Assembly: GCF_041146345.1 (NCBI RefSeq)
Contig: NW_027191414.1
Span: 1,364,001 to 1,428,000 of the forward strand
Origin: Neodothiora populina
Taxonomy: Eukaryota
Length of the DNA stretch: 64,000 nucleotides
Direction of reading: 5' to 3'
In this document: one piece after another, positions 21,601 to 62,754 of the stretch
Numbering within the stretch: the stretch's first letter is position 1
Layout of the letters: each line of letters starts with the position of its first letter
Position numbers and translations under genes: made by a program
Notes under the pieces: generated by a model
What the model saw: the letters and a program-made list of their open reading frames with translations, nothing else
Database searches by the model: none
Told to the model about the DNA's origin: nothing

Positions 21601-21832
21601 GGACCCGGAGATGGCTAATTCGGGTCATCCTTTTGGATGGAGAGTTGTCGAACTGCATCTGTAGGTGAGTGGCAATGGCACTACATATATGTTTCTCGTA
21701 GTGCCGCATGTTGAGTCCGATCGCAATCCACTTTCGCTTTCCATTAGCTGCGTTTCCAAGACCTGATCTCGGACATTGCTTCTAAACTCACTCAATCGCT
21801 CTCTGTTTATATTTGCGGTGGCGAGTCTCATC

Positions 21833-23753
21833 ATGCGGTTCCACAACCTGGTCGAACTATGCCTCTTGGCGTCTGCTTCCTTGGGACTGGGCGAGGCCCT
21901 TCCTGCCCAGAACTATCTATGGGGAGCGGATGGTATGGGAAAGATGGTCAAGCGTGCAACTACTAGCACAACATCTGCTTCATCAACCTCATCACTAGTG
22001 GCAGACGCAGCTTGTACCAATGGTGCTTTGACACGATCATGCTGGGGTAGTGGCTACAGTATCGCCACCGATTTCGATCAGAAGCACCCGACTACTGGCA
22101 AGACTGTTACTTATGACCTCACAATCACCAACACCACTTGCAACCCAGATGGCCACGGTGATCAGCAATGCTTGCTGGTCAACGGCCAATATCCTGGTCC
22201 TGTCATCACTGCCAACTGGGGAGACACCATTAGTATCACTGTACACAACCAGATGCAAGACAACGGTACCAGCATGCACTGGCACGGTGTCCGTCAATTG
22301 AACTCGGTTGGTTCTGACGGTGTCAACGGAATCACTGAGTGTCCCATCGCACCCAGCAAGTCCAAGACCTATACCTTCTTGGCCACGCAATTTGGAACCT
22401 CATGGTACCACAGCCATTACTCATCCCAGTACGGTATGGGCATTGTTGGACCCATTGTCATCAATGGACCGGCAAGCTCGAATTACGATGTTGATCTTGG
22501 AGCTTTCCCCGTCAGCGATTGGTACTATTCTAACGCTGATAATGTCAATATTTTGACCTTGAACGCTCTTCAGACAGGTGGTGCCGGTCCTGCCGGTGAT
22601 ACCATCTTGGTCAACGGTACCATGAACAACGGTAATGGCAAATATGCTCAGGTCACGGTTCAGAAGGGCAAGAAGCATCGTCTCAGACTGATCAACACTT
22701 CCGTTGATGTGAGTAATTCCAGTTTCGACTTCTGTATGATTACTAACCCAAAGACAGAATTACATCAGAGTCAAGCTTGACAACCATCCCTTCACTGTAA
22801 TGACTGCAGATTTCATTCCTGTGAAGCCTTTGCCCGGACAAGACTGGGTTCTCCTGGCTATTGGCCAGCGTTACGATGTCGTGTTCACAGCAAACCAGAC
22901 TGCTGGAACCTACTGGTTCAGGGCCGAGGTCGCTGGTGACTGCTTCAGCGCAAACAACGGCAAAGGACGTGCCTTGTTCACCTACTCAGGCTCTACAGTC
23001 AGTGCGCCTACCGATTCCAACACTGCCCCTCCCACGAATGGTTGCCAGGATCTCGTGACTGTGCCATACTGGAAGCAGGCTGTCGACCAGAGCACTTTCT
23101 CCGCCCAGGCCAAGACACTCAACACTGGTCTCCAGATCCCAGGAGTTACCGCCAACGGCCAGAACCTCGTTCTTTGGGCTCTCAACACTACTGCGATGAC
23201 TGTCAAGTGGGACACGCCGACGCTGCAGTATGTTGCTACAGGCAACACAAGCTACCCTCAGTCATACGACATGATCGAGATCCCGAACGAGGGTGTGTGG
23301 ACCTACTGGATCATCCAGGTTGCGAGCGGCTCGCCGCCTCCTGCTCACCCGATCCATCTTCACGGACACGATTTCTTCGTCCTCGGTCAGGAATCAAACG
23401 CAGTCTTTGATGCCTCGACCGCAAGTTTGAATTTTGCCAACCCGCCGCGTCGTGATACTGCCACTCTCCCCAGCGGAGGATGGTTAGCTCTTGCTTTCGT
23501 GGCCAACAACCCCGGTTCCTGGTTGATGGTAAGAGTTCCTTGTTCTACTTCTCTACTTACCTCAGAGCTAATATGTTTCCTCTTTTAGCACTGCCACATC
23601 GCATGGCACATCAGCGAAGGTCTCGGTGTACAGTTCCTCGAGGCCAAGAACAACATCCAGATGCCCGACATGACACAATTCAACCAACAGTGCTCTGACT
23701 GGAAGTCGTACGCCAAGACCATGCTGTACCCCCAGGTCGACAGTGGCCTATAG
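21833..23753 (+). CDS. Secreted laccase (multicopper oxidase, AA1), 3 exons
   Basis: Signal peptide plus KR pro-site. Four Cu motifs: HWHG, WYHSH, HPIHLHGH and HCHIAWHISEGL. C-terminal DSGL tetrapeptide typical of ascomycete laccases. Confidence 0.96.
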
Positions 23754-25244: not shown

Positions 25245-26438
25245 TCACATCAGACAAGCCTTCATCTCGATAGCAGAGGAAACGGCCGGGGCGGACCCGC
25301 CGAGACGACGGTATCCGCCCTCGCTGGCGACGCGCTTCTGCAGCTCGGCCATCTTCTTCTGGTCACCGGTGGGATCCTTGGAGTCGGCCTCGAGTCCCCA
25401 CTCCAGGAACTCATTAGTGTAGTTGGGCTCGTAGTCGGCGGGCAAGACGCCCAGACGCTTGCCGTAAGCGGTGACTTTGTTCCAGTCGCGCATCACGTTC
25501 TTGAGGTCCTTGCTGAAGTAGGCAAAGGAGCGCTCGAAGATCTTGCGGTTCAGGGGAGTGTTCATGACGGGTTTCATGTCGACGTATTCCTCGTAGGCAC
25601 GGGCGGGGTCGGCAAGGACATAGTCGGTCGCGCGCTTGCAGGCACGCATGAATGCCTTGACTTTGTCTGGGTTCTGGAGGATGAACTCGTCGTTACCAAT
25701 GTAAAGAATGGAACAGAAGCAGCAGCATCCCAGCTCGGCGAGTTCGTCGATGCGCAACATCTGGACGTCGGACTTGGGACGACCTTGCTCCTCAAGCCAC
25801 TCTTCGAGCTCAGGCATTTGGACATTCTCAAGACCAATACCTGCGTCGATGGCGCCAGACTTGATGGCCTTGGCCACGTTCATACCGCATCTCACTGCAG
25901 TGTAGTCGTCGGGAGTCATGCCGTAGTGGGAGGTCAGCTCGTCAATCTGGATCTTGCCGAACTCCCCGACATAACCAATCTTCTTTCCCTTGAGAGTGTG
26001 GAAGTCGGGGGTGATGCCAGAAGACTTGAGGTAGACGACACCAGTAAAGGGCTCATCGAGGAGAGAGCCGATAGATGTGACGGGGAAGCCACGAGCCTTG
26101 GCTGCCAGAGTATGAATCATGGCCTTGAATCCCAAGTCGACCTTGCCACTGCCGATGATCTCCGTAACGTCCTGCCGGCGAAGATAAGTTGATGTGTTGT
26201 GATAGATGGAAAGAGAAAACGTACACTGGGGTCATTGGGCTCGAGCAGAGCAACCTTGACACCCTCATCGGCAAAGTATCCCTTGGCCTGAGCCAGGTAA
26301 ACCGGGGCGTGGTAAGGAGTAGCGTGCCTGTATTCATGTTTCGTGTCAGTCCCAGAAACTCTGCATCTATCTTCAGACAGTGACAGAAAAAGACAAGACC
26401 GACCAGTTGGACAAAAAGGTAATCTTGTCGGTCGACAT
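25245..26438 (-). CDS. NMT1: HMP-P synthase (thiamine pyrimidine biosynthesis), exons 26438-26404, 26327-26225, 26171-25245
   Basis: [27 protein letters not shown] (PLP Lys / substrate His) and CCCFC motif of the THI5/NMT1 family. Confidence 0.97.
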
Positions 26439-48900: not shown

Positions 48901-50711
48901 TACTTGGACTCGAGTAGGTACCTAAGCAGCGCGAGGCCCAGCTGTTACCATAAGTGCGACGTGATTCGCTGGCAAAATACTGTTGTAGCTATAAACGTGG
49001 AGCCAGCTCTGAAGCACTTAAGCCAGCAGCCAACGTTAATCGCTGATCATTTGTTTGAGCGAATACGGCACAGGCTGCACCACAGTCAAGGATAGATAGA
49101 CATTGTACACGAAAGATAAGAGTGATATAAGGGATCATGAGAGCGACCTCTTATCGCGCGAAGAGAAGCATAGATAGGAAGTCACGGCCTGGGGCCATTC
49201 GGAAGTGGCAAAAAGTGCAGTCGGTTCCCTTGTACTGGGACGAGGAGATCAGGAGGATCGGAGTATCAGTAGAGTCGAAGATTGGCTATCGCAAGTGAAT
49301 CGTCCTTGTATGTGCGACATGGGCGAAGTACGGAGGCAGGTACGAACAATATTACCGCTCTGAGAGAAGACATCCCGGTGTCGATGTTTGTTTGATCACC
49401 TATCTTACCTATACCGATTTCGATCTATCACGACGCTTGGACTACTTGTCTTGGCAGGCTGCACCCTCGGCAGCTGCACTGGCCGATCGAGGTAGGCCGG
49501 CACAAGACACACAGCTGTCAATGCCACCTTTGCCTCCACGCCTTTCACTCACAGACTCAATCCACTGCTATTGCGGAGGCGGCGTGACCATCCCAGCTTT
49601 TATCAAGATGGCGCTGAACGGCGCGCAGCCTCATACCTCACTCGAGCACCTGTGCACAAGGCAATACGCAATCTGGGGCAAACGTGCGCGCGTAGTAAGT
49701 TTAGTGTAACTGTTATCTTCCTAGCAGAAGTGCCTATCTCACATTGTAGGGGCTTAGTGCAAACACCTCTGTTTGCCATCTTTTGCGAGCCTCGACATCA
49801 ATAACTTGGGCAGTGTAGTCGAGCGTCTCTCGATATTCTAATGGTTGCAATACGACGTTCCCTATGCTGACATCGATCACCTGAGCAGTGCTGCCGATGC
49901 GTTGGCAGATCGAGAAATGTTCAATGTACACGAAGGATCTGTGGATGCAAGAGGAGGGCAAAGTCGTAATAGCGCGCACACTGCCCTGTGACTGTAACGC
50001 ACCGCTTTTTTGACTCGTTTATGGTAAATATCTGACTATTTCTATTTCTCATCTTTCTCGGCATTGTTATTAGTCTTCCCCAATCTCACGACTCAGACCG
50101 GCGCGCACGGCAGGCGTCGAGGTGCCTCCGAACCCTGCCAATTTCGCAACCTCATACAGTAACCCAATCCTCGTAGCCTGCACGAGTCCGCGACTCCACC
50201 AGTCGTTTCATCGCTTTGACAATGCGAGAAGCATTGGTGTCAAAAAGAACAACGCTAGGGCTGCCCGTTATCGACCGTGGACCTAGATGTTTCTGACAGA
50301 AAAACTCTCGTAATGACCGAAAAAATGCCAATCCTTGGCGAATGGAGAAACTTTCTGGGCGAGGCAAAAGCGCAAACCGATCCACCCTCGTCATAGGCGG
50401 GTACGATGTAAGTGAAATTGCGGCGAGGTATATACGTTCTTTTCTTCTCTCTCGTATCGTAGACTATTTTTTCCAGGCCACAATACAGTCCCTTTCTATG
50501 ACCACGCCTGCCATTCAACTTGCTTTCCTGTAGCTAGCTCTGTTTGAAATCCAGCGCCCATTGCACCAAATCGAGACGACAACCCCAAAGCGCCCTTCTT
50601 TTCATCAATATACGGATCTCCCCAAAGCAACATTGACGGACAGAAACGACATTGACGATAGCGACAAACCCCATACTCAACAGCCCATAGCACCTGCGCC
50701 CTCACAGTGCC

Positions 50712-52546
50712 ATGACTTCCTCCTACGACCCCAATGCGACTAGCGGCCCTCACCAAAGCGACACGATGCCGGACTCACATTTCAAGAAGGGAACTTACAA
50801 GGATGAATCAGACTTGACTTTGCATGACTCCGAGGTCGGCTCCTCCAAAGCGCCTGCTGACAATATGTTGGTCGTGTTAGGGTATCAATCTGAATTAGCC
50901 AGGACCAGGTCAACGTTGCAGGTTGCTTTCATGTCCTTCGTGCTCAGTTCGATACCCTTCGGTCTGTCAACTACTTTCTCATACCCCTTAGTTGGTGGTG
51001 GTCCCGCCGCCATCATCTGGGGCTGGGTAGGTGTGTCCCTGATCATTGTCTGCGTGGCCGTGTCTTTGGGTGAAATCACGTCTGTGTATCCCACCGCTGG
51101 CGGTGTGTACTATCAGGCGTACATGCTGTCTCCGCCCGGGTGTAGAAAATTATTGGCCTGGATCTGTGGATGGTCTTATACGCTCGGCAATGTCATCATC
51201 ACCCTAGCTGTCAATTTCGGTCTCGCCCTCTTCATCGGAGGATGCGTCAACATCTTCAAAGACAGCGAGGGAAACAACGTTTTCGCAGCTGAACCTTACC
51301 AGATCTTCCTGATCTTCCTAGCAATTACCTTGCTTTGCAATGCGGTCTCTTCCCTCGGAAACAAGTGGTTGCCTATTCTGGACGTGCGTATCACCATGCT
51401 CTCGTGACGAGGCTTAATTTTCCCTATCCCCCCGATCTCATTCTGGAAGTTGTGCTTACATGATCACACAGACCTTTGCGATTTTCTGGACTTTCGCTGG
51501 TGTCCTCGCTATTATCGTTTGTGTTCTTGCAATCGCCAAGGAAGGTCGCAACAGCTCCAGATATGTCTGGGGAGGATTCGTCAATGATTCCGGCTGGACC
51601 GATGGCTGGGCGTTCTGCGTAGGCCTCCTGCAGGCGGCATATGCGACATCAGCCACTGGGATGGTCATTTCGTAAGTTTTCGTCTTTGCCACTCAATGCC
51701 GATCCAAGTATACTTACGTGAGTATCAGAATGTGTGAGGAAGTCAAGCAGCCCTCGACGCAAGTCCCCAAGGCATTGGTTGGCACCGTTCTCTTGAACCT
51801 TGTCGCTGGTGTCGTCTTTCTTGTTCCTCTGGTGTATGTCCTTCCTGATATTGCTGCCCTTCTTGCGGATCCTTCTGGTCAGCCTGTTCCAGCAATCCTG
51901 GCGTCAGCGGTTGGCAGCAAAGGTGGTGCGTTTGCACTTACCATTCCCCTCATCGTTCTTGGCATCATCTGTGGTATTGGTTGCACCACTGCCGCATCTC
52001 GTTGCACATGGGCTTTCTCTCGCGATGGCGCCATTCCCGGATCGCATTTGTGGAAGCAGGTCAACCCAACCTTGGGCGTACCTCTGAACGCTATGATGTT
52101 GAGCATGATCGTCCAGATCGCGCTTGGTTGCATTTACTTCGGTTCGGCTGCGGCGTACAACGCCTTCAGTGGTGTCGGCGTCATCTTCCTCACCGTCAGC
52201 TACGCAATACCGATCTTCGCCTCGATGCTCAACAACCGCAAGCAGCTTGTTGGTGCTCCGTTCCACATGGGTGCCTTCGGCGCTTTCTGCAACTGGATAT
52301 CCATTGGTAAGTTGGAAGATGTAATCAGATCCATGTGTAGATGGTGCTAACGTCCATTTAGGCTGGAGTCTTCTCGCTGTGCCCTTGTTCTGTATGCCTT
52401 CAGCCATTCCTGTGACACTGAACTCGATGAACTATGCGTCAGCTGTGTATGCTGGATTCATGTTAATCGTGATGGTCTGGTATTACGCCTGGGGGCGCAA
52501 GAACTACCAAGGACCGCCGCAAGAGGATCACGAGATCCTTCAATAG
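50712..52546 (+). CDS. Amino acid/choline/GABA permease (APC superfamily, ACT family), 4 exons
   Basis: LGYQSELAR, GEITSVYPTAGGVY, MCEEV, SRCTWAFSRDGAIP and MNYAS motifs. Confidence 0.92.
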
Positions 52547-53296
52547 GCGTTGTCTGCTGCCTATTTTTCCTGTGGTCGTTATGCTCCATACCTAACTTTG
52601 TACATAAAAAACCTTATACCCGTACATAGAGTATGTAGCAATACCATCTCATCACTTTTTTCGAAACCTAGCACCCCAAGCTGTGGGTCAGACTCAGCAG
52701 AACGTCACGACTCACCATACAGACGCCTTTGCCGCTCGCAGCAGGAGGTAACACTATTCACCAGCTCTCCATCGGGTTTGGGAAAACTTGCAACTTACAT
52801 TGTGGCCGGCTGTCGCTCTTGATATAGTCGCTGGGCCTTTGAAGCAAAAAATAAAAGAAAACACGATCGCCTGCTCGTAAAACCTCACGCGTCGCTCGTG
52901 GCTCGTTCGTCGGCCTTGTCTAGATGCACGCCAGCGCCAGCGCTCTGATCAACAAGAGGTACTCCACGCCAATAGCCAATGGTCTTTTCAGCGATATACA
53001 GAGACACCGCTCTGATTAAATTGGCGTGCATGCAAAAGTCGCTCACATTGGCTGAGCCGCGGCAATCAACGGAGTGAACGACCATAACAATCTTTTCGTT
53101 TGAAAAGATCGGATTATTTGACCAAGCAATGTCAAATCTTGACGTGGAATAAGTTCTTCATTGATTTCAAATACTAATTCGTCTCGAACGAGTACTTCTG
53201 ATATCCTGACAAGATCCGGCCTCACCGTACCACAATGATACTAATCACGCTGGATGCTACCTACTAAGCTAAAAGCACTCTGCCAGAGCACTCCAT

Positions 53297-54164
53297 CTAC
53301 CATGGATATTGCCCATGCTCATGCACGAAACATCCGTGTTCAGCATCTCTCCCGCCATTGAGGAGCTTGACTATAGGCGCGGCGCCCTCACTCGTTGGCT
53401 TCGCTCCGTTGTCAGCGTTATTGTTTTCACTCAAGTTCGACACGCAGAACCCAGGACAATAAGCAAAGATCTTGAAGCCTTTTGGTCCATGGTGATATAC
53501 CTGGCATGCAGTCACCATGTTCAAGGCGGTTTTGCTGACGCGGTACTGTTCGCCTGCGATGTTGTATCCTGGAGATGTCGGGTCTAGGCGCTTTGCAATA
53601 GATCCCACGCCACTAGAGACATTCACTATCCGTGGAGTCCCGTTCGATTTGCTGAGCAAAGGCGCGAACTTGTCAACCATCACCATTGGACCGATGGCAT
53701 TGGTCTGGAAGCACTGTGCCATCTGCTGTGCCATGGTACCCTGACCAAAAGCCACAGCAGCATTGTTCACTAGAGCATCGAGGCTGGCAGATAACACAAC
53801 ATCAGCAGGTCGATCACCCTACAGAGCATGAAGCCTGGCATTGTAGTGTACATACCGGCCATACTTGGTCTCAACAGCTTTAGCAGCATCCTCGATAGAA
53901 TCCTCGCTGGAAACGTCGACTTCCAACAACTCCACCGTACCCGGCTGCCTCTTCGACTCTAGGTCCTTGATGGCGACTTCGCCTTTGCTAACAGAGCGGC
54001 AGCCAAGGAGGACGAGTTTGGAGGCGTCCGACAAAAGCTGAGACACCAATTCGAGGCCAATGCCTCCATTAGCTTTGGATCGTCAGCGAACACATATCTT
54101 GAGTACGCATGCCGTAAATGATCGTACCTCCGGTTACCAAGACGATGTTCTTTGCAGCAGCCAT
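53297..54164 (-). CDS. Short-chain dehydrogenase/reductase, 3 exons
   Basis: IVLVTG|ANGGIG, LVNNAA, NVSSGVGS, YRVSK (YxxxK) and CPGF motifs. Confidence 0.9.
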
Positions 54165-55128
54165 GAAGGTCTAAAGCTGTATTTTACCTGGTTCAGTGTT
54201 AACGAAAAGCCGCTTGAGTCTGATCGTTGAAGATGGCATCAGCACTGAATTTAAATAGAGCTGTTCACCTTAACTCCGTGACAGGATCAAGCCTTCTTGC
54301 TCTTTACAGTAGAGCTACATTTTATCTCCGGTCTGGCATGTTACATACTGATGCTGCACTCGCTTGATTGGGCAATGGACAAGGTTTACTCCCAACGGAC
54401 TTAACATGAATAGGTACCTAAAGCCGGTGGTTTGACCAGGGTTGCAACACGACCATGTCGCTCTTTGCAAGTCTGTTGTTGAAGACAGACCCAGTCTTAC
54501 CCCTCACAGGATCAAACGGGGAAATGTGTTGAGAAGGAGTAGCATCTCTTGATATTTTCCAGCGACAAGAAAGACGCCTACGTCCGTAGTCGGCTGCTCT
54601 TCGCTTAACAGAAGCGTACAATGTGAGGTTCTATCTTGACCCTGTATCATGAATAACCTTACATACCTTAGCTAGGACTGCTCTGGGGATGGGGGCAATC
54701 CTCACGTGATTAGGCCCCGCAGCAAGAAACGAGTGCTCCATGATGGCTGTGTTCTGACCTCTGTCTTGGTATGGATAGAGATAATCATACAGTATCGGGT
54801 TCGAGGCAGGTCCGCTCTCACGTAAAACGGCAGGCGTACATCTATGGAAACGATTGTCCAAGCGGCCATATATGATGATATAGTATTGCACCGTAACACA
54901 TGGTCGCAAGCCGGTACACAAATGCTCAATTTCCAAGCACTCACTGCAATCACGTGCTAAGAATTTCACTGAAAGGAAACCAGAAAAATGGACTGGACGA
55001 GCCTAGTGGCCATTGTAGTTAATCAGAAAGTATATACACATCAAAATCCTGCAGCCTGTGAACCCTACTATACCACTAACTCCTGTAAGCTAAAGGAAAC
55101 ACCTTCATCTTCACACTGTCCCGGACGT

Positions 55129-56226
55129 CTATCGCTCCAGTAAATCCTCCCGAGGGGTATCTTGTCTATGCATTCGCTCCCGAGTGTCACAACCCAGCCA
55201 CAACAGATCCGGGCGGCTGTAATGCCCACAGATATCTAGGAAGCTTCGCGCGAAAATGGCATGGCTGAAATCGAGGTCTGCAAAGACGCAACCTTCGGTA
55301 GTGGGACCTAGAGACTCACTAATGACACGACCGTCTGGCCCGACCACAGCAGATGATCCACCTCCGGCGGCGTTCATGAGCATACCGGCCTCGGTCGACA
55401 TGGCCTTTATGCCCTTTTCGGTGATGACCTGTGTCGCATGTAGCACGAAGGCTTGTGATTCGATTGCGTAGACTTGAGACAGACTCAAGCATCCTAAGTT
55501 GACTATTCAGTACAAAGGGAGCCCAAGAATGTGTGTGGTTCTACTGACCTTCTGAAGTCATCGACCAGAGACCCGGTCCACCATCGTGTGGCACGATCGG
55601 CGGCCAAGCCGAGCAATGGATGTCTTCCTTCTGATGGATGCTGTGATACTTGAGCAGAGGCTGGGTGTGTTCCCAGCAGGCGAGCGTTCCCACGCGTCGA
55701 TCGAGAGATGTGGATGCTACATTAAAGAGACTCTTGCCAGAAGCGTCTCCGAAGATGGTTCTTTCCATGTGAGTAGCCTTGAGCTTGCGTCGGGTCATGA
55801 GCATCTTGCCGTCCGAGTCGATAAGCGCTTGAGCAATGTAGAGCGAGTTGTTATCGTTCTCCGAGAACCCCAAAGATACAACAACCCCTGCCTTGGCTGC
55901 ACATGCCTGAATCGTGCGCATCTCATCCGAGTCTACTGCTAAAGAGTTCTGAATGTACTTTGTGCTCAAAACAGGGTCCAGAGGACGACTCCTGTGGATA
56001 ATCCGGAGTCAGTACATTGTCTTTGCTTTCCAATATTTCGTGTGGCGACTAACCAAATCCATGCAGGATATCCTGGGATGAACGCCTCTGAGAAAGTGAC
56101 AAGTTCAGCGCCTCCTTCGGCGGCTTCTTCGATGATGTGGCATGCCTTCTGGACCGACTTCTCCAGGTTGAGCCATTCGGGCTCGTGCTGTGATACAGCG
56201 ACTCTGACTGTCGTCTTCTTAGTCAT
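55129..56226 (-). CDS. Nitrilase (carbon-nitrogen hydrolase branch 1; aliphatic/arylacetonitrilase-like), 3 exons
   Basis: Catalytic triad FSE(A)[17 protein letters not shown] and [10 protein letters not shown]-terminal [15 protein letters not shown] (not CWEN) argues against a cyanide hydratase. Confidence 0.95.
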
Positions 56227-56540
56227 GTTTGTAAGAGGTATTGTGCAAGATACGAGGCGAATATCAGGTCAAGGGTGTATGAGGATCAAAGATATGATAT
56301 TGAATGATGACTGTTTGTTGTCGAGCCAATCTGTGGCATCGACTGGCTCTTTATACAGGCACGCGACCGAGTTGCTTACGACAGTTGATAATACAAGCTA
56401 CGCGCTCGTAGCTGATCACAGATAAGGTCATGAACGACCCCGTAAAGAGTAATCTGACTTATCTTACCTTATACTTAACTCTAATACCGTGTGGCAGGAC
56501 ATTTACGGTCAGATCTGCTCTCACTACGGCCTATCTGGGA

Positions 56541-56727
56541 TGCGGATAGGTCTTCCGCAGTGGTGAGAGTTTCATGGTCTCACGCATGCCCAGACACGGC
56601 GGGGTAAAGCATGCTTAAAGGGGTCCAGAGGAGCGTCTAATCTTGCCGATCCCGCTCGTTACTCGTTATATGATACGTACTCAAATGCTGCGACGGAGGT
56701 ATGGCTATCTGCGGATTTCGTACCGCA
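56541..56727. promoter_or_regulatory. Two CGG-triplet palindromes in the nitrilase promoter (candidate Zn2Cys6 sites)
   Basis: TGCGGA-taggtct-TCCGCA at 56541-56559 and TGCGGA-tttcgt-ACCGCA at 56710-56727. Confidence 0.6.
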
Positions 56728-56841
56728 CTCGCGATAATCAATATCCGCTGTCTCAAGCTGATATATACAAGTAGATTACTCGCCAAGTAGATGTATTATG
56801 CTTCGCACGAGCCGTTCAGACAATTTAAAATTGGTATGCAT

Positions 56842-59159
56842 TCATACATTATATGTCGTTGGCCCTTCGTTATCAAACAGCCAGTCAAGGTATGAAGCAT
56901 CCATACCCTGAATAGCAGATGCCAGGTCATCATCATGTTGCAGTGGTGGATCTTCCCAGAAACTCTCGATTGTGGCGTGTAGCGCTATATGGTCGAGCCC
57001 GTCATCAACTCGTATGGCATGAGATGCGAATCCAGGATCGACTCGAGGTGTCGCGTCTTTCTTTGCTGCCTCTCGTGGATTCGATAATGGCCCACTGTGC
57101 GCGATTGGCAAGGTCCATACGACTTCCCACTTGTGGGCAAGCTCTTGTATTCGCCTGAAAGCAGCTCGGGCACGATGACCCCATCTGTCTTGCATCTCGT
57201 ACAGGGCGTCCACGCAGATCCGCACACCATTGGCAGATCGCCGGCCGAGAGGAGTGCGACCTGCAGTAGCATTGAGTAGATGAATGACAGCGGCCGTGAG
57301 AATGTAGTCTATTATCTGAGGGGAAATGCTCGTGAAACTTCGTAGTCGGCGGTAGGCGCGAACGATCTTGGTTATGGTTGCCGCAGCCGTAGTCACCGAC
57401 TGAATGGCAAACCGGCCTGCCGGACTCTTGCCTGATTCATCAAGCAGCGGCCGATGAATCAATATGAGCGAGGTTTGATAGCTGAGTTGTAGCCAGACTA
57501 CAGAATCTGGCATGTATCCTTTGCTCAGTCGCAGTGCTTCATCATTCTCGCTGTTGAACTTCACGAGACTTTGATGTGAACGAAGCACCAGAGCTGTTTT
57601 ATCCTTCCTATCGAGCTGCGCCCAGCCGAAGGCGTATCTGATGATATTGTCAGTCACACGGCGTGTACAAATGGAGAGGGCTCATTTTACGTTTGATCCA
57701 TACAGGAGTCCCATAGATGCCATAGTTCGCAGAATCGGTCGTGCGCTATGTCGTCGACACCAGGGGCGCCTGGTAGTATAGATAAGAAGGAGGGCTGCCG
57801 AACTCGTTGCCAATGCATAGTACAATTCATGCCCAGGCTAGACGTAACAAGCCTTGGAAAAGAAAAAAAGTTAGGCTAAGAGTCCGCTGCGTATGTTGGG
57901 GTCCATCATACCGATCTACTGAAAAATATGCAGAAAAGGAGCGTACACGACGTTTGTAAGCAGACGAGTGGACTGCAAAAGAAGAGTCTGGACTAGTCAA
58001 TGCAGTTACGTGCAGTCCAAGGTGTAGGACTTGTCCTGTTGCCATTGCTAGAGGCGGAGAAATGTCAGTATCATGACTTGTTGCATACCATCGTAACACA
58101 TGTGCAGAGGTCAGCTCACCTATCCAGTTGTATGCCATGCTGTGAGCACCAAGCATTAGGTCTCTCCAACCGAGCAAGGCCAATCCTTGGATAACCAGGT
58201 CACTCGGTTGACTCGCGATACATTGCAATGCAAGATTTGAAGCATTAGAGTAGTAGTTTTCCTCAAGCAACCGGACATGCTGCTGGCCCGAGAAGAATGA
58301 TGCAACCGCAAACAAGGCGTTATTGCGAAAATGGGCGTCTAGTTCGTTTTCACCTTCACTGCCATTGACAAGCAGATTGGCGTCTTCTGAATCAAGAAAA
58401 CGGTGATAGACATTGAATTCGTCCATGAAACATGCCACCAGATGCTGCCTGAGCTCATGGTTGGAGGATGTTGATAGGCTAGTGTTTAGTTCTCTGACAT
58501 TCGCCTTTGGACCAGCCTGAGACACCGAATGTGAATCAGGCACCGTACTCTGGATAGAAGAAATCGTGAAAGAAGGCTCTCCACGGTCCTCAATTTGCAC
58601 CTTAAGCATCAAGGAAGAAAGTTCTTCAATGGCAGCTGAAGATCTGATATATGGTGAATCGCCGCTTCCTTCGTAATCATCGAAGGATGTGTTCCCTATG
58701 AGGTCTGAGGACGTGCTTCTCTCTTGACCGATGCCTTCGTGCTCATGAGCCAGTGCTCTGGAGGGATCTGCGAAAGACCTATCATGCTCATTCGATGATC
58801 TGGCTTCCAGCAGTGCGTTTTGCAGTGTATTAATCTGGTCTTGTAGATTGCGTATGAGCTCTTCATCTTGATACTTTCGTCTGTTTGGCTGTCAGCACTG
58901 CCTCACAAGCGTAGCAGAACGTGAGCATCTCATCATACTTGCGACTCGTCTCCGGGATGTACAAGCATGTGCGCCCTGATCGCTGACACAGGAAGCAAGT
59001 AGGTTTTGCGCCATCGCACTAACTCAAGGTCAATTACAAGCGACTAATATCATACACTGCACATCTTATGCAATAATGCCCTACCTTGCGCTTCCCTTTG
59101 CGACACTCCTCGCAGGCGTTCTTAACGCGAGCACGTGGTTTAGTCTGTTCGTCGTCCAT
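56842..59159 (-). CDS. Zn(II)2Cys6 binuclear-cluster transcription factor with fungal middle-homology domain, multi-exon
   Basis: ACEECRKGKRK|CDGAKPTCFLCQRSGRTCLY, a coiled-coil linker, LHLGLH..RRVRSF..YFSVDR and LILIHRP. Confidence 0.93.
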
Positions 59160-59408
59160 CGAGAGCGTCTGGTCTTGGCACTTGCGGATTATGTCTTGAC
59201 CGAGAAATTAATTAATCAACCCGTAGCATTCTAGATCACAACGACATCAGGCGGCCAACGAGCTTACCATCTTACGGGTTCAGTCTTCATGAACAATACG
59301 AAGTCGTGACAAGAGCTGTTGTCGAGAGCAGCCCGTCCCCCACTCGTTTTACCTTCCACGCCAATCCGTTCAGAGCTGCCTTCCGAAAGTCTAAATCTAT
59401 ATCGCTTT

Positions 59409-59523
59409 TGCGGATGCATCATCCGCACATTCTTATCAATAGACTTCATCTGCATCGTTAGTACAGGGTACAGGTCAAGACAAATTGGAGTTGAGAAGAG
59501 TAATGCGGAATCCATGTTCCGCA
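59409..59523. promoter_or_regulatory. Two CGG-triplet palindromes in the divergent TF/oxd promoter (candidate Zn2Cys6 sites)
   Basis: TGCGGATG-cat-CATCCGCA at 59409-59427 and TGCGGAA-tccatg-TTCCGCA at 59504-59523. Confidence 0.6.
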
Positions 59524-59743
59524 AGATCGATACTGCTACCACAAGGTTGTCAAGTACGGGGTTAGTGTAACGATAAGGTAAGGTAGGTAAGCGGTGGATC
59601 TGCAAGATATATATGGGATGGAATGAATCTCGATGATTGCAATTACTTCAATTCTCATTCGCCAGTATTTTCATCCGATTTGCAAAGCACAGTTTGGTCA
59701 GGGCCACCCTCATAGCTAGAGAACGTTGTCATATCAAGCAGAC

Positions 59744-60841
59744 ATGGTATTTCTCATCGATCTGGGTGATGAAGATCTCCTTTTCACGTACGCTATCTTC
59801 GGCGTTCAGCACCCGACGATGAGCGCGGAGAAGAAACGTCAAATCAGTACTCTACATGACTTGTTGTCATCATCTGCTGGACGTGTAGACCAGCTATGCG
59901 ATGAAGATCATGGCACAAAAGGAGGACACATGCCCCCTTCAACGACTTTCGTTGCATACTGGCTACGCAGCAGTGACTACGAGGAGTTTGCCCAATCGAA
60001 GGCATTTGCAGACTTCTGGAATGATCTACCCGACGATGCTGGCGTCTGGCGGGAGGTCATGACCGTGCCAAAGGCGCGTTATATGTTCGCTGCGAGTCAA
60101 GAAGTGAAGTGGGGCTTAGCCACGATGTCGGAGCTGAAGATCAGTAACGATGAGGGCTATTGGGGAGTATATCGACACCGATTGGGCGATGTAGGAGACA
60201 CATATACGTCTCCATATGTAACCAACACCATGAATAGCACCACCTCTCCAGAGACCGCAGCTGAAAATGTAGAGACTGCGAGACCAGTCTTGAGCATACC
60301 CCAGCCAGGGTCACCAAGCATCGAAGGCGAACAACCGATTCGACGTGGCAAGGTCACCATTACGAATCCACCAGATAACCTATGCTTCGTTCGCGAAGGA
60401 CAGCGCCAGCCTCACGTTTCAAAAGAGGAGGTCGATCTATGGATCGAACACATCTCCCCTCACGCAGCCTCCTGGATTGACCATCTTGACACCAATCGTC
60501 AGAAGAATGGAGTCATGACATTTACAACCCACGTTGGACGTGACAGAGTCGCGAGCAGTGACACTGTCGTAGAAGCTGCACCTGTAGCTGAGACAAACCA
60601 GCTGGCATTCTTCCTTGATCTTGCACATTTTGAGCGTGCAGGAAGAAGTCACAAAGGACACGTACAATTAAGGAAGAATGTCATGCAGCATTATGGACCG
60701 GGAGGCCAGATGCAGAAGCTTGGCAAGGCGGAACTGTTTGTCGAGTTATGTGTCTTGAAGAGCGGTGACTTGATCGCTGAGTATATTGGATGTACAGAAG
60801 GGACCGGGCTGATGTGGCTCGAGTCAGACACGAAGAATTGA
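59744..60841 (+). CDS. Heme-containing aldoxime dehydratase (Oxd) homolog with non-canonical catalytic residues, single exon, 365 aa
   Basis: FGVQ, VAYW, GVWREV, EGYWGVYRHRL, DNLCFVREGQ, FERAGRSHKGH and AEYIGCTEGTGL align with Oxd blocks (EHGYWGSMRER, NIALIRSGQ, ERWSESHPTH, EYINCHPGTGM). First ATG is at 59744. Confidence 0.88.
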   Translation: MVFLIDLGDEDLLFTYAIFGVQHPTMSAEKKRQISTLHDLLSSSAGRVDQLCDEDHGTKGGHMPPSTTFVAYWLRSSDYEEFAQSKAFADFWNDLPDDAGVWREVMTVPKARYMFAASQEVKWGLATMSELKISNDEGYWGVYRHRLGDVGDTYTSPYVTNTMNSTTSPETAAENVETARPVLSIPQPGSPSIEGEQPIRRGKVTITNPPDNLCFVREGQRQPHVSKEEVDLWIEHISPHAASWIDHLDTNRQKNGVMTFTTHVGRDRVASSDTVVEAAPVAETNQLAFFLDLAHFERAGRSHKGHVQLRKNVMQHYGPGGQMQKLGKAELFVELCVLKSGDLIAEYIGCTEGTGLMWLESDTKN

Positions 60842-62321: not shown

Positions 62322-62754
62322 ATGTCTTTCCACCTTTCTGCCCAGGAGATCCACATCGCCGACAACCACATCCTCAGAGCACGTCTCCAGACCGAGAGCG
62401 GCGAATGGCGGGAATCCGAGATCGATCTTGACAACCACATTGGAAACATCAACGGCATGTTCCAATGGGACAGCGCTGGTGAGTGGAGTCTCTCCTGCAA
62501 CGAAGAAGCAAGTAAGAGTTGACCATGTCCAAGGTTTCTCCCAGACTGCTCAGAACGCACACTTCGCCATCGAGGGTGGCGGTCAAGTCCCCGTCCTCCG
62601 TGCTGAGCTGTTCAACGAGGCCGGCGAGCCCATCTCCCGCGACGTGAACTTGGCCGAGAGAATCGAGAACCACGACGGTCAATTCGTCTACAGTATGAGA
62701 TCCATCTGATCAAGTCACAAAGATATGCCAGCTGACAATTGCCCGATAGCCTAA
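62322..62754 (+). CDS. Cyanovirin-N homology (CVNH) lectin, exons 62322-62478, 62534-62692, 62750-62754
   Basis: MSFHLSAQEI..HILRARL..SEIDLDNHIGNINGMFQW..GFSQTA..VLRAEL..DVNLAERIENHDGQF; internal two-repeat CVNH pattern. Confidence 0.92.

Follow-up and report, generated by a model that had tools for sequence, protein, structure and literature searches.

What do three adjacent genes of Neodothiora populina, the agent of aspen running canker (PMC8032200), do together? In a 64-kb stretch of its DNA (the window; contig NW_027191414.1, positions 1,364,001 to 1,428,000), a nitrilase gene, a gene for a Zn2Cys6 regulator and an intronless gene for a heme protein of the aldoxime dehydratase (Oxd) family lie side by side. 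A sequence-only reading of the window had proposed that they form a dedicated module for plant aldoximes. We think it likely that the three genes are a co-regulated unit that carries aldoximes through nitriles to acids. Conserved linkage and a shared promoter element of the form expected for a Zn2Cys6 dimer fit a dedicated, co-regulated module, and the predicted direction of the pathway fits what is reported for the closest assayed relative of the dehydratase, OxdSs of Sclerotinia sclerotiorum. Statements cited by PMC number refer to the available excerpts of those papers.

Splice models and an open frame in the window bear out the adjacency of the three genes, all of them intact, and Pfam matches agree with their names: PF00795 for the nitrilase (E=1e-42), Zn_clus (PF00172, 34.5 bits) and Fungal_trans (PF04082, 29.3 bits) for the regulator, both above the cut-off, and PF13816 for the dehydratase (E=1.6e-75, 254.8 bits, profile positions 1-310 of 310). 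The regulator and nitrilase splice models are letter for letter the database models P0241 and P0121, and the database proteins identical to the queried exons are N. populina AAFC00_006087 and AAFC00_006088. The regulator and dehydratase genes diverge, with 584 bp between their ATGs, so the divergent promoter of about 580 bp described earlier was correctly seen. The nitrilase gene is on the same strand as the regulator gene, with 615 bp from the regulator stop to the nitrilase ATG. The regulator itself has the Zn2Cys6 layout: a six-cysteine cluster from residue 16, a probable coiled coil (judged by eye) and the Fungal_trans domain.

Is this arrangement kept in other fungi? Linkage was tallied by hand from locus tags and accession numbers returned by protein searches, and from metagenome contigs. 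In 27 named species from four fungal classes, the locus or accession numbers of the dehydratase and nitrilase genes differ by 1-3; further species are unscored, since only cluster representatives are named. The middle gene was shown to be the regulator in seven of the 27 (five Botrytis, e.g. BGAL_0118g00020, 00030 and 00040, and two Venturia), and some Venturia gene models fuse regulator and nitrilase. Another 11 have one gene between the enzymes (e.g. between BCIN_02g03010 and 03030). At least 21 metagenome loci were available. In two, L004 and L005, the order and orientation of all three genes are those of the window; together with the 27 species they supply the conserved linkage that the sequence-only reading had named as a check. 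In a third, L015, the regulator lies in tandem (not divergently) before a frameshifted dehydratase, and the remaining 18 show neither partner, most of them being short. Against 1.84 billion representatives, the best match of the regulator other than itself was the Botrytis gene between dehydratase and nitrilase (48% over 598 residues; names were looked up for 10 of the 150 matches listed). The flanking reductase, permease and CVNH genes had no match in the 11 other loci tested. Hence, the linkage is a property of the cluster and not of general synteny.

The linked nitrilases also belong together by descent. All 19 that were tested fall into one clade of 26 rows (SH-like approximate likelihood-ratio test [SH-aLRT] 100); 16 other nitrilases, among them second Botrytis copies from different loci, stand outside it. 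Quick trees of the dehydratase and the nitrilase have matching subclades, and Fusarium groups with Chaetothyriales in both (97 and 95). The smaller nitrilase tree does not have this grouping, and an approximately unbiased (AU) test on it rejected a clade of Leotiomycetes plus Sordariomycetes only mildly (p=0.024). We do not claim horizontal transfer, because hidden paralogy accounts for the tree pattern equally well. The cluster is special neither to N. populina nor to pathogens; it is also found in Aureobasidium-like loci, Halenospora, Tricladium and a black yeast.

An inverted pair of CGG triplets is the usual target of Zn2Cys6 dimers. The palindrome TGCGGA-N7-TCCGCA, which the sequence-only reading had overlooked, occurs twice in the window, once in the nitrilase promoter and once in the divergent spacer, and in none of 100 shuffles; the genome holds 4 sites in 24 Mb, 2 of them at the cluster. 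The motif was defined on the window alone and then sought in homologous promoters. It was found in five of five: L004 and L005 each carry one copy in the nitrilase promoter and two in the spacer, and L015 has one before the dehydratase. It is the longest conserved block in the alignment of the nitrilase promoter with those of L004 and L005, and the spacer site at 59409 aligned with the same site in both, in promoters that are otherwise poorly alignable. When all 5-N-5 dyads were counted without bias, variants of the palindrome alone were common to all five non-redundant promoters; in 30 base shuffles, dyads were shared by at most 2 promoters (29 times) or 3 (once). The core was present at 3/3 regulator-linked metagenome loci versus 0/10 loci with at least 500 bp of DNA upstream of the dehydratase and no regulator seen. 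Four partial matches, and four loci where the upstream DNA was shorter, were left out of this comparison. We conclude that the palindrome is probably the binding site of the cluster regulator.

Might the regulator have targets elsewhere? The genome has 21 copies of the 10-base core of the palindrome and 22 of the reversed control, and a wider regulon was rejected for want of a genome-wide excess. Outside the cluster the core is no commoner than background, so that the regulon is apparently limited to the cluster itself. The two 12-base sites outside the cluster were not counted as support for a regulon. One is a third perfect palindrome (G000:C16:1002064-1002082; L032, L034), about 240 bp before a metallo-beta-lactamase-family gene (PF00753) that could be a fourth regulated gene, chance being possible too; the other lies in a stretch without an identified gene. 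As a separate observation, the dehydratase at L015:1282-2397 has three frame changes; next to it are one palindrome and a regulator end that looks intact. This dehydratase is a pseudogene or an assembly error.

The dehydratase has the fold of its family. Its AlphaFold model (predicted local distance difference test [pLDDT] score 86) returned OxdB, OxdRE and OxdA in all ten best structure rows (7f2z, 3a17, 3w08; template-modelling [TM] scores 0.69-0.72). Its active site differs from theirs. The catalytic set of OxdA is Ser219, His320 and Arg178 (PMC5391958). Aligned on OxdRE (3a15), Arg146 falls on canonical Arg178, Ser219 is replaced by Glu218 and the distal His320 by Val333. The canonical bacterial Arg-Ser-His site is therefore not present; in its place stands Arg146-Glu218-Val333, the fungal REV type. 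The absence of the canonical Ser and distal His had also escaped the earlier reading. In the same alignment, the partner of His306 is His319 of the 373-aa 3a15 chain, which after a 20-residue offset is OxdRE His299, the proximal heme ligand. The NCBIfam OxdA model scored 62.8 bits, below its cut-off of 600.

Does the altered site mean a decayed enzyme? Residues were counted over the best 120 of 133 homologues. REV is found in 105 of these, a gap at one of the sites in 8 and other residues in 7; therefore, the dehydratase has not decayed privately. Arg146 is retained in 120/120, His306 in 118/120 (the other two being gaps), Glu218 in 114/120, Tyr143 in 113/120 and Val333 in 108/120. At the Tyr143 position, Met is found in the bacterial enzymes and in the canonical fungal locus L021. 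OxdFv of Fusarium vanettenii and OxdAsp of Aspergillus ibericus reportedly also lack the distal His, and OxdAsp is said to use a Tyr-x-x-Arg plus Glu triad that would match Tyr143-x-x-Arg146 and Glu218 here. Both are said to be of REE and not REV type, which by description sets them apart from the present enzyme. These two non-canonical fungal Oxds are active on aldoximes, and REV and REE enzymes are described as widespread in fungi (PMC11568032). We infer that Tyr143-Arg146-Glu218 chemistry stands in for the distal His of the dehydratase.

The genome has a single REV-type gene. A second, weak PF13816 match (C4, L025:6662-7507) was rejected as a further dehydratase: it scores 96 bits as Monooxygenase af470-like versus 33, and the REV profile gives no match. 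That gene adjoins an aldehyde dehydrogenase gene. A small subgroup of homologues (P0093, P0099, P0114; L010) has a third active-site type, Arg-Asp-Ala with Asn for Tyr143.

The dehydratase is not new territory, because one of the enzymes listed as characterised is 57% identical to it. This relative, S. sclerotiorum XP_001597459.1 (SS1G_01653, P0252), is listed as OxdSs, an indole-3-acetaldoxime dehydratase (PMC11568032). Over 356 columns, it shares with the N. populina protein the Arg-Glu-Val site, the position of the His ligand and, in the tree, the REV clade; the 43% divergence leaves room for another substrate range. OxdSs reportedly takes indole-3-acetaldoxime and 4-hydroxyphenylacetaldoxime, not phenylacetaldoxime (PMC11568032), so that phenylacetaldoxime, one of the substrates suggested by the sequence-only reading, is doubtful here. 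The proposal of a dedicated module for plant aldoximes has gained from the conserved linkage and the shared palindrome. The review literature, in its available part, describes OxdSs as a lone enzyme. Its database model (P0252, 347 aa) ends before the conserved last C-terminal strand of its 361-aa relatives, so the annotation may be truncated.

The nitrilase is of the true (branch 1) kind by its catalytic Glu-Lys-Cys triad (Glu47-Lys127-Cys163) in a CWEH motif and by similarity: nitrilases take the first five places among its PDB matches (E 1e-65 to 1e-61), ahead of a cyanide hydratase (1e-54) and NIT4 (1e-23). Fungal arylacetonitrilases, which prefer substrates of the phenylacetonitrile or indoleacetonitrile type, have the same triad with CWEH. 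A cyanide hydratase identity was rejected on rank, 9ofa coming only sixth with 187 bits versus 224. The cyanide hydratase class is assigned at >60% identity and the arylacetonitrilase class is defined by activity; the available part of the same source gave no sequence motif diagnostic of substrate class (PMC6928751). CWEH-x-QPL does not fix the substrate, because it is also present in the nitrilase clade that is not linked to the cluster. Automatic labels within the nitrilase's own clade are mixed: two close homologues are called 'Arylacetonitrilase', others 'aliphatic nitrilase' or 'putative cyanide hydratase'. All named relatives of this intron-bearing nitrilase are fungal, and the genome has two distant nitrilase-like matches elsewhere. 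A nitrilase of the same type in Exophiala bonariae (P0147, 866 aa) carries a 540-residue tail that has no Pfam match and is unlike the cluster regulator; it is possibly a model merged with another neighbour.

How might the module work? The Zn2Cys6 protein would bind as a dimer to inverted CGG-N9-CCG sites with the consensus TGCGGAT-N5-WTCCGCA, which stand before the nitrilase and within the spacer shared with the dehydratase. It would sense an aldoxime or a nitrile and switch both enzymes on, and it may raise its own expression. The substrate of the dehydratase would be an arylalkyl aldoxime, with indole-3-acetaldoxime and 4-hydroxyphenylacetaldoxime as the likeliest candidates, bound on a ferrous heme that His306 holds. 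With Glu218 in the place of bacterial Ser219 and no distal His, Tyr143 and Arg146 would probably give the proton; water would leave and the nitrile would form. The nitrilase would then hydrolyse this nitrile to the acid and ammonia. The dehydratase step is drawn from fold, residues and OxdSs, and the nitrilase step from its family. The net effect would be removal of a plant defence compound or its precursor and salvage of nitrogen, with an auxin-type acid as by-product. Nitrogen-type HGATAR elements number 6 versus 3.1 and 6 versus 2.4 expected in two nitrilase promoters, a borderline excess (21 and 16 of 300 shuffles were as high); the three dehydratase promoters showed no excess of HGATAR, and CreA-type sites were not enriched. 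Poplars make aldoximes on herbivory, and phenylacetaldoxime inhibited bacteria that cause plant disease (PMC10756763); an aspen fungus could therefore plausibly meet a supply of substrate. Phenylacetic acid is itself reported to be antifungal (PMC9867223).

A number of observations weigh against a dedicated aldoxime module under its own regulator. Nine of the 27 linked species (Sclerotinia nivalis, Ciborinia, Halenospora, Tricladium, Bisporella, Cladophialophora chaetospira and three Fusarium) have adjacent enzymes with no annotated gene between them. Rhinocladiella mackenziei has its same-clade nitrilase on a contig other than that of the dehydratase, and the metagenome loci L003 and L007 have neither nitrilase nor regulator within 8 kb on either side. 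The sister gene of S. nivalis has an adjoining nitrilase, and none was seen next to SS1G_01653 itself. The promoter motif was tried on few independent lineages, about two outside the window, L004 and L005 being near-copies and the L015 dehydratase frameshifted. The single clade of linked nitrilases was a favoured outcome, because these were drawn from the 120 best matches and their cluster members. On the side of chemistry, OxdSs activity was only 0.014 U/mg, for the native enzyme (PMC8955678), and REV enzymes are said to lack information (PMC11568032). His320 of OxdA is the acid-base catalyst, and H320A was without dehydratase activity (PMC5391958); the dehydratase here has Val at this position.

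Perhaps auxin is the purpose of the pathway? Indole-3-acetaldoxime would then pass through the nitrile to indole-3-acetic acid to influence the host, with detoxification and nitrogen salvage secondary. OxdSs does prefer indole-3-acetaldoxime (PMC11568032, PMC8955678) and has been cited as evidence of an auxin route in S. sclerotiorum (PMC7961953), and many carriers of the cluster are plant pathogens. However, no aldoxime-making enzyme was seen beside the cluster. The carriers of the cluster moreover include Aureobasidium-like loci, Halenospora, Tricladium and Cladophialophora, which are not known as host-manipulating pathogens, and substrate-induced catabolism is usually laid out in this way, with a local regulator whose sites lie at both enzymes. 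We regard an auxin purpose as unlikely. To a similar degree, we doubt that the REV heme protein serves mainly another chemistry, in which it would make a nitrile from some other N-O or N-heterocyclic compound (e.g. by opening an isoxazole-type ring), or act in redox, and the nitrilase would take the product. The replacement of both canonical Ser and His, the very low OxdSs activity and clade-invariant residues such as Glu218 and Gln220, which suggest a distinct pocket, speak for such a role, as do the action of Oxds on dihydroisoxazoles and benzisoxazoles (PMC11568032) and their redox side activities (PMC5391958). Against these stand the fold and the heme-ligand position, which are those of Oxds, and the activity on aldoximes of OxdFv, OxdAsp and one assayed close relative, the last with clear selectivity (PMC11568032).

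The enzymes could also be a real pair, with the Zn2Cys6 gene a passenger or the controller of other targets, and with the palindrome read by an unlinked factor. The nine species without an annotated middle gene, and paralogues of the regulator family elsewhere in Botrytis, would be expected if so. Yet the motif follows the presence of the regulator (3/3 versus 0/10), CGG inverted repeats are what this protein class usually binds, and the closest relatives of the regulator stand at the same place in two fungal classes; we consider a passenger very improbable. A chance neighbourhood of three unrelated genes, to which stand-alone dehydratase relatives such as L003 and L007 might point, deserves almost no credence: the linkage in 27 species already refutes it, and a nitrilase clade that goes with the linkage, the shared palindrome and flanking genes that are not conserved speak against it too. 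A co-regulated aldoxime module remains our preferred reading of the locus.

The same three functions stand side by side in bacteria. In Bacillus sp. OxB-1 and Bradyrhizobium, oxd and nitrilase genes are clustered with a gene for the AraC-type regulator NitR (PMC8955678). The Oxd fold is also the same (OxdB, OxdRE, OxdA). In contrast, the fungal dehydratase is only 17-19% identical to the bacterial ones and has REV for Arg-Ser/Thr-His, and the fungal cluster has separate promoters, a Zn2Cys6 regulator and an intron-bearing nitrilase. Hence, because regulator family, promoter layout and active site differ, it works like the Bacillus/Bradyrhizobium type but is not a member of it. It looks like an independent assembly and not a transferred operon. 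A larger picture is possible, and we offer it tentatively, holding it less probable than its opposite. Ascomycetes may have built a three-gene aldoxime regulon independently of bacteria, with a Zn2Cys6 protein as sensor, TGCGGAT-N5-WTCCGCA as operator and a His-less Tyr-Arg-Glu dehydratase, and this regulon, moved or lost as a unit across fungal classes, may be the genomic home of OxdSs. With it, bark and leaf fungi, N. populina on herbivore-damaged aspen among them, would capture aldoximes on their way to camalexin, glucosinolates or cyanogens and convert them to auxin-type acids.

That fungi have aldoxime dehydratase activity is decades-old knowledge. A literature search found nothing on the organisation or regulation of fungal aldoxime dehydratase genes, no account of this fungal cluster, its regulator or its palindrome, and no papers on six cluster locus tags; Pedras 2010, Kristkova 2023, Pei 2023, Martinkova 2019 and supplements may mention the linkage. 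As far as this search shows, the conserved cluster, the candidate regulator and the candidate operator are new, the chemistry of the enzyme being already known. The cluster gives the large REV group, flagged as lacking information in the available part of a 2024 review, a partner enzyme together with this regulator and operator. With the candidate sensor and operator in hand, one can directly test how fungi regulate aldoxime metabolism and what REV enzymes do, and a harmless and tractable carrier such as Aureobasidium lends itself to this. If our reading is true, it would explain how fungi of plant surfaces and cankers cope with a defence chemistry that is widespread in plants, and it could supply a first fungal sensor of aldoximes or nitriles and a new enzyme pair for cyanide-free synthesis of nitriles and acids.

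Table 1. Positions in the window of the three cluster genes, the candidate regulator sites and the neighbouring genes.
Feature	Position	Strand	Details
Zn2Cys6 transcription factor gene	59159 to 56842	minus	six exons, five GT-AG introns, 669 aa
Nitrilase gene	56226-56054, 55991-55549, 55493-55129	minus	three exons, two GT-AG introns, 326 aa
Aldoxime-dehydratase-family heme protein gene, REV type	59744-60841	plus	no intron, 365 aa, PF13816
Palindrome TGCGGA-N7-TCCGCA, nitrilase promoter	56541..56559		candidate regulator site, 315 bp from nitrilase ATG
Palindrome TGCGGA-N7-TCCGCA, divergent spacer	59409..59427		335 bp from dehydratase ATG, 250 bp from regulator ATG
Second spacer palindrome	59504..59523		8-base spacer; L004 and L005 carry a second 7-base site instead
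Weaker palindrome variant	56710..56727		one arm with a mismatch, spacer shorter; not kept in L004 or L005; may be chance
Short-chain dehydrogenase gene	53297-54165	minus	just downstream of nitrilase gene, same orientation
CVNH-domain gene	62323-62750		flanks the region
Amino-acid permease gene	50711-52550		flanks the region

Elsewhere in the window, the frames at 21767-23588 and 25245-26231 resemble a multicopper oxidase and a thiamine-biosynthesis NMT1/THI5 protein.

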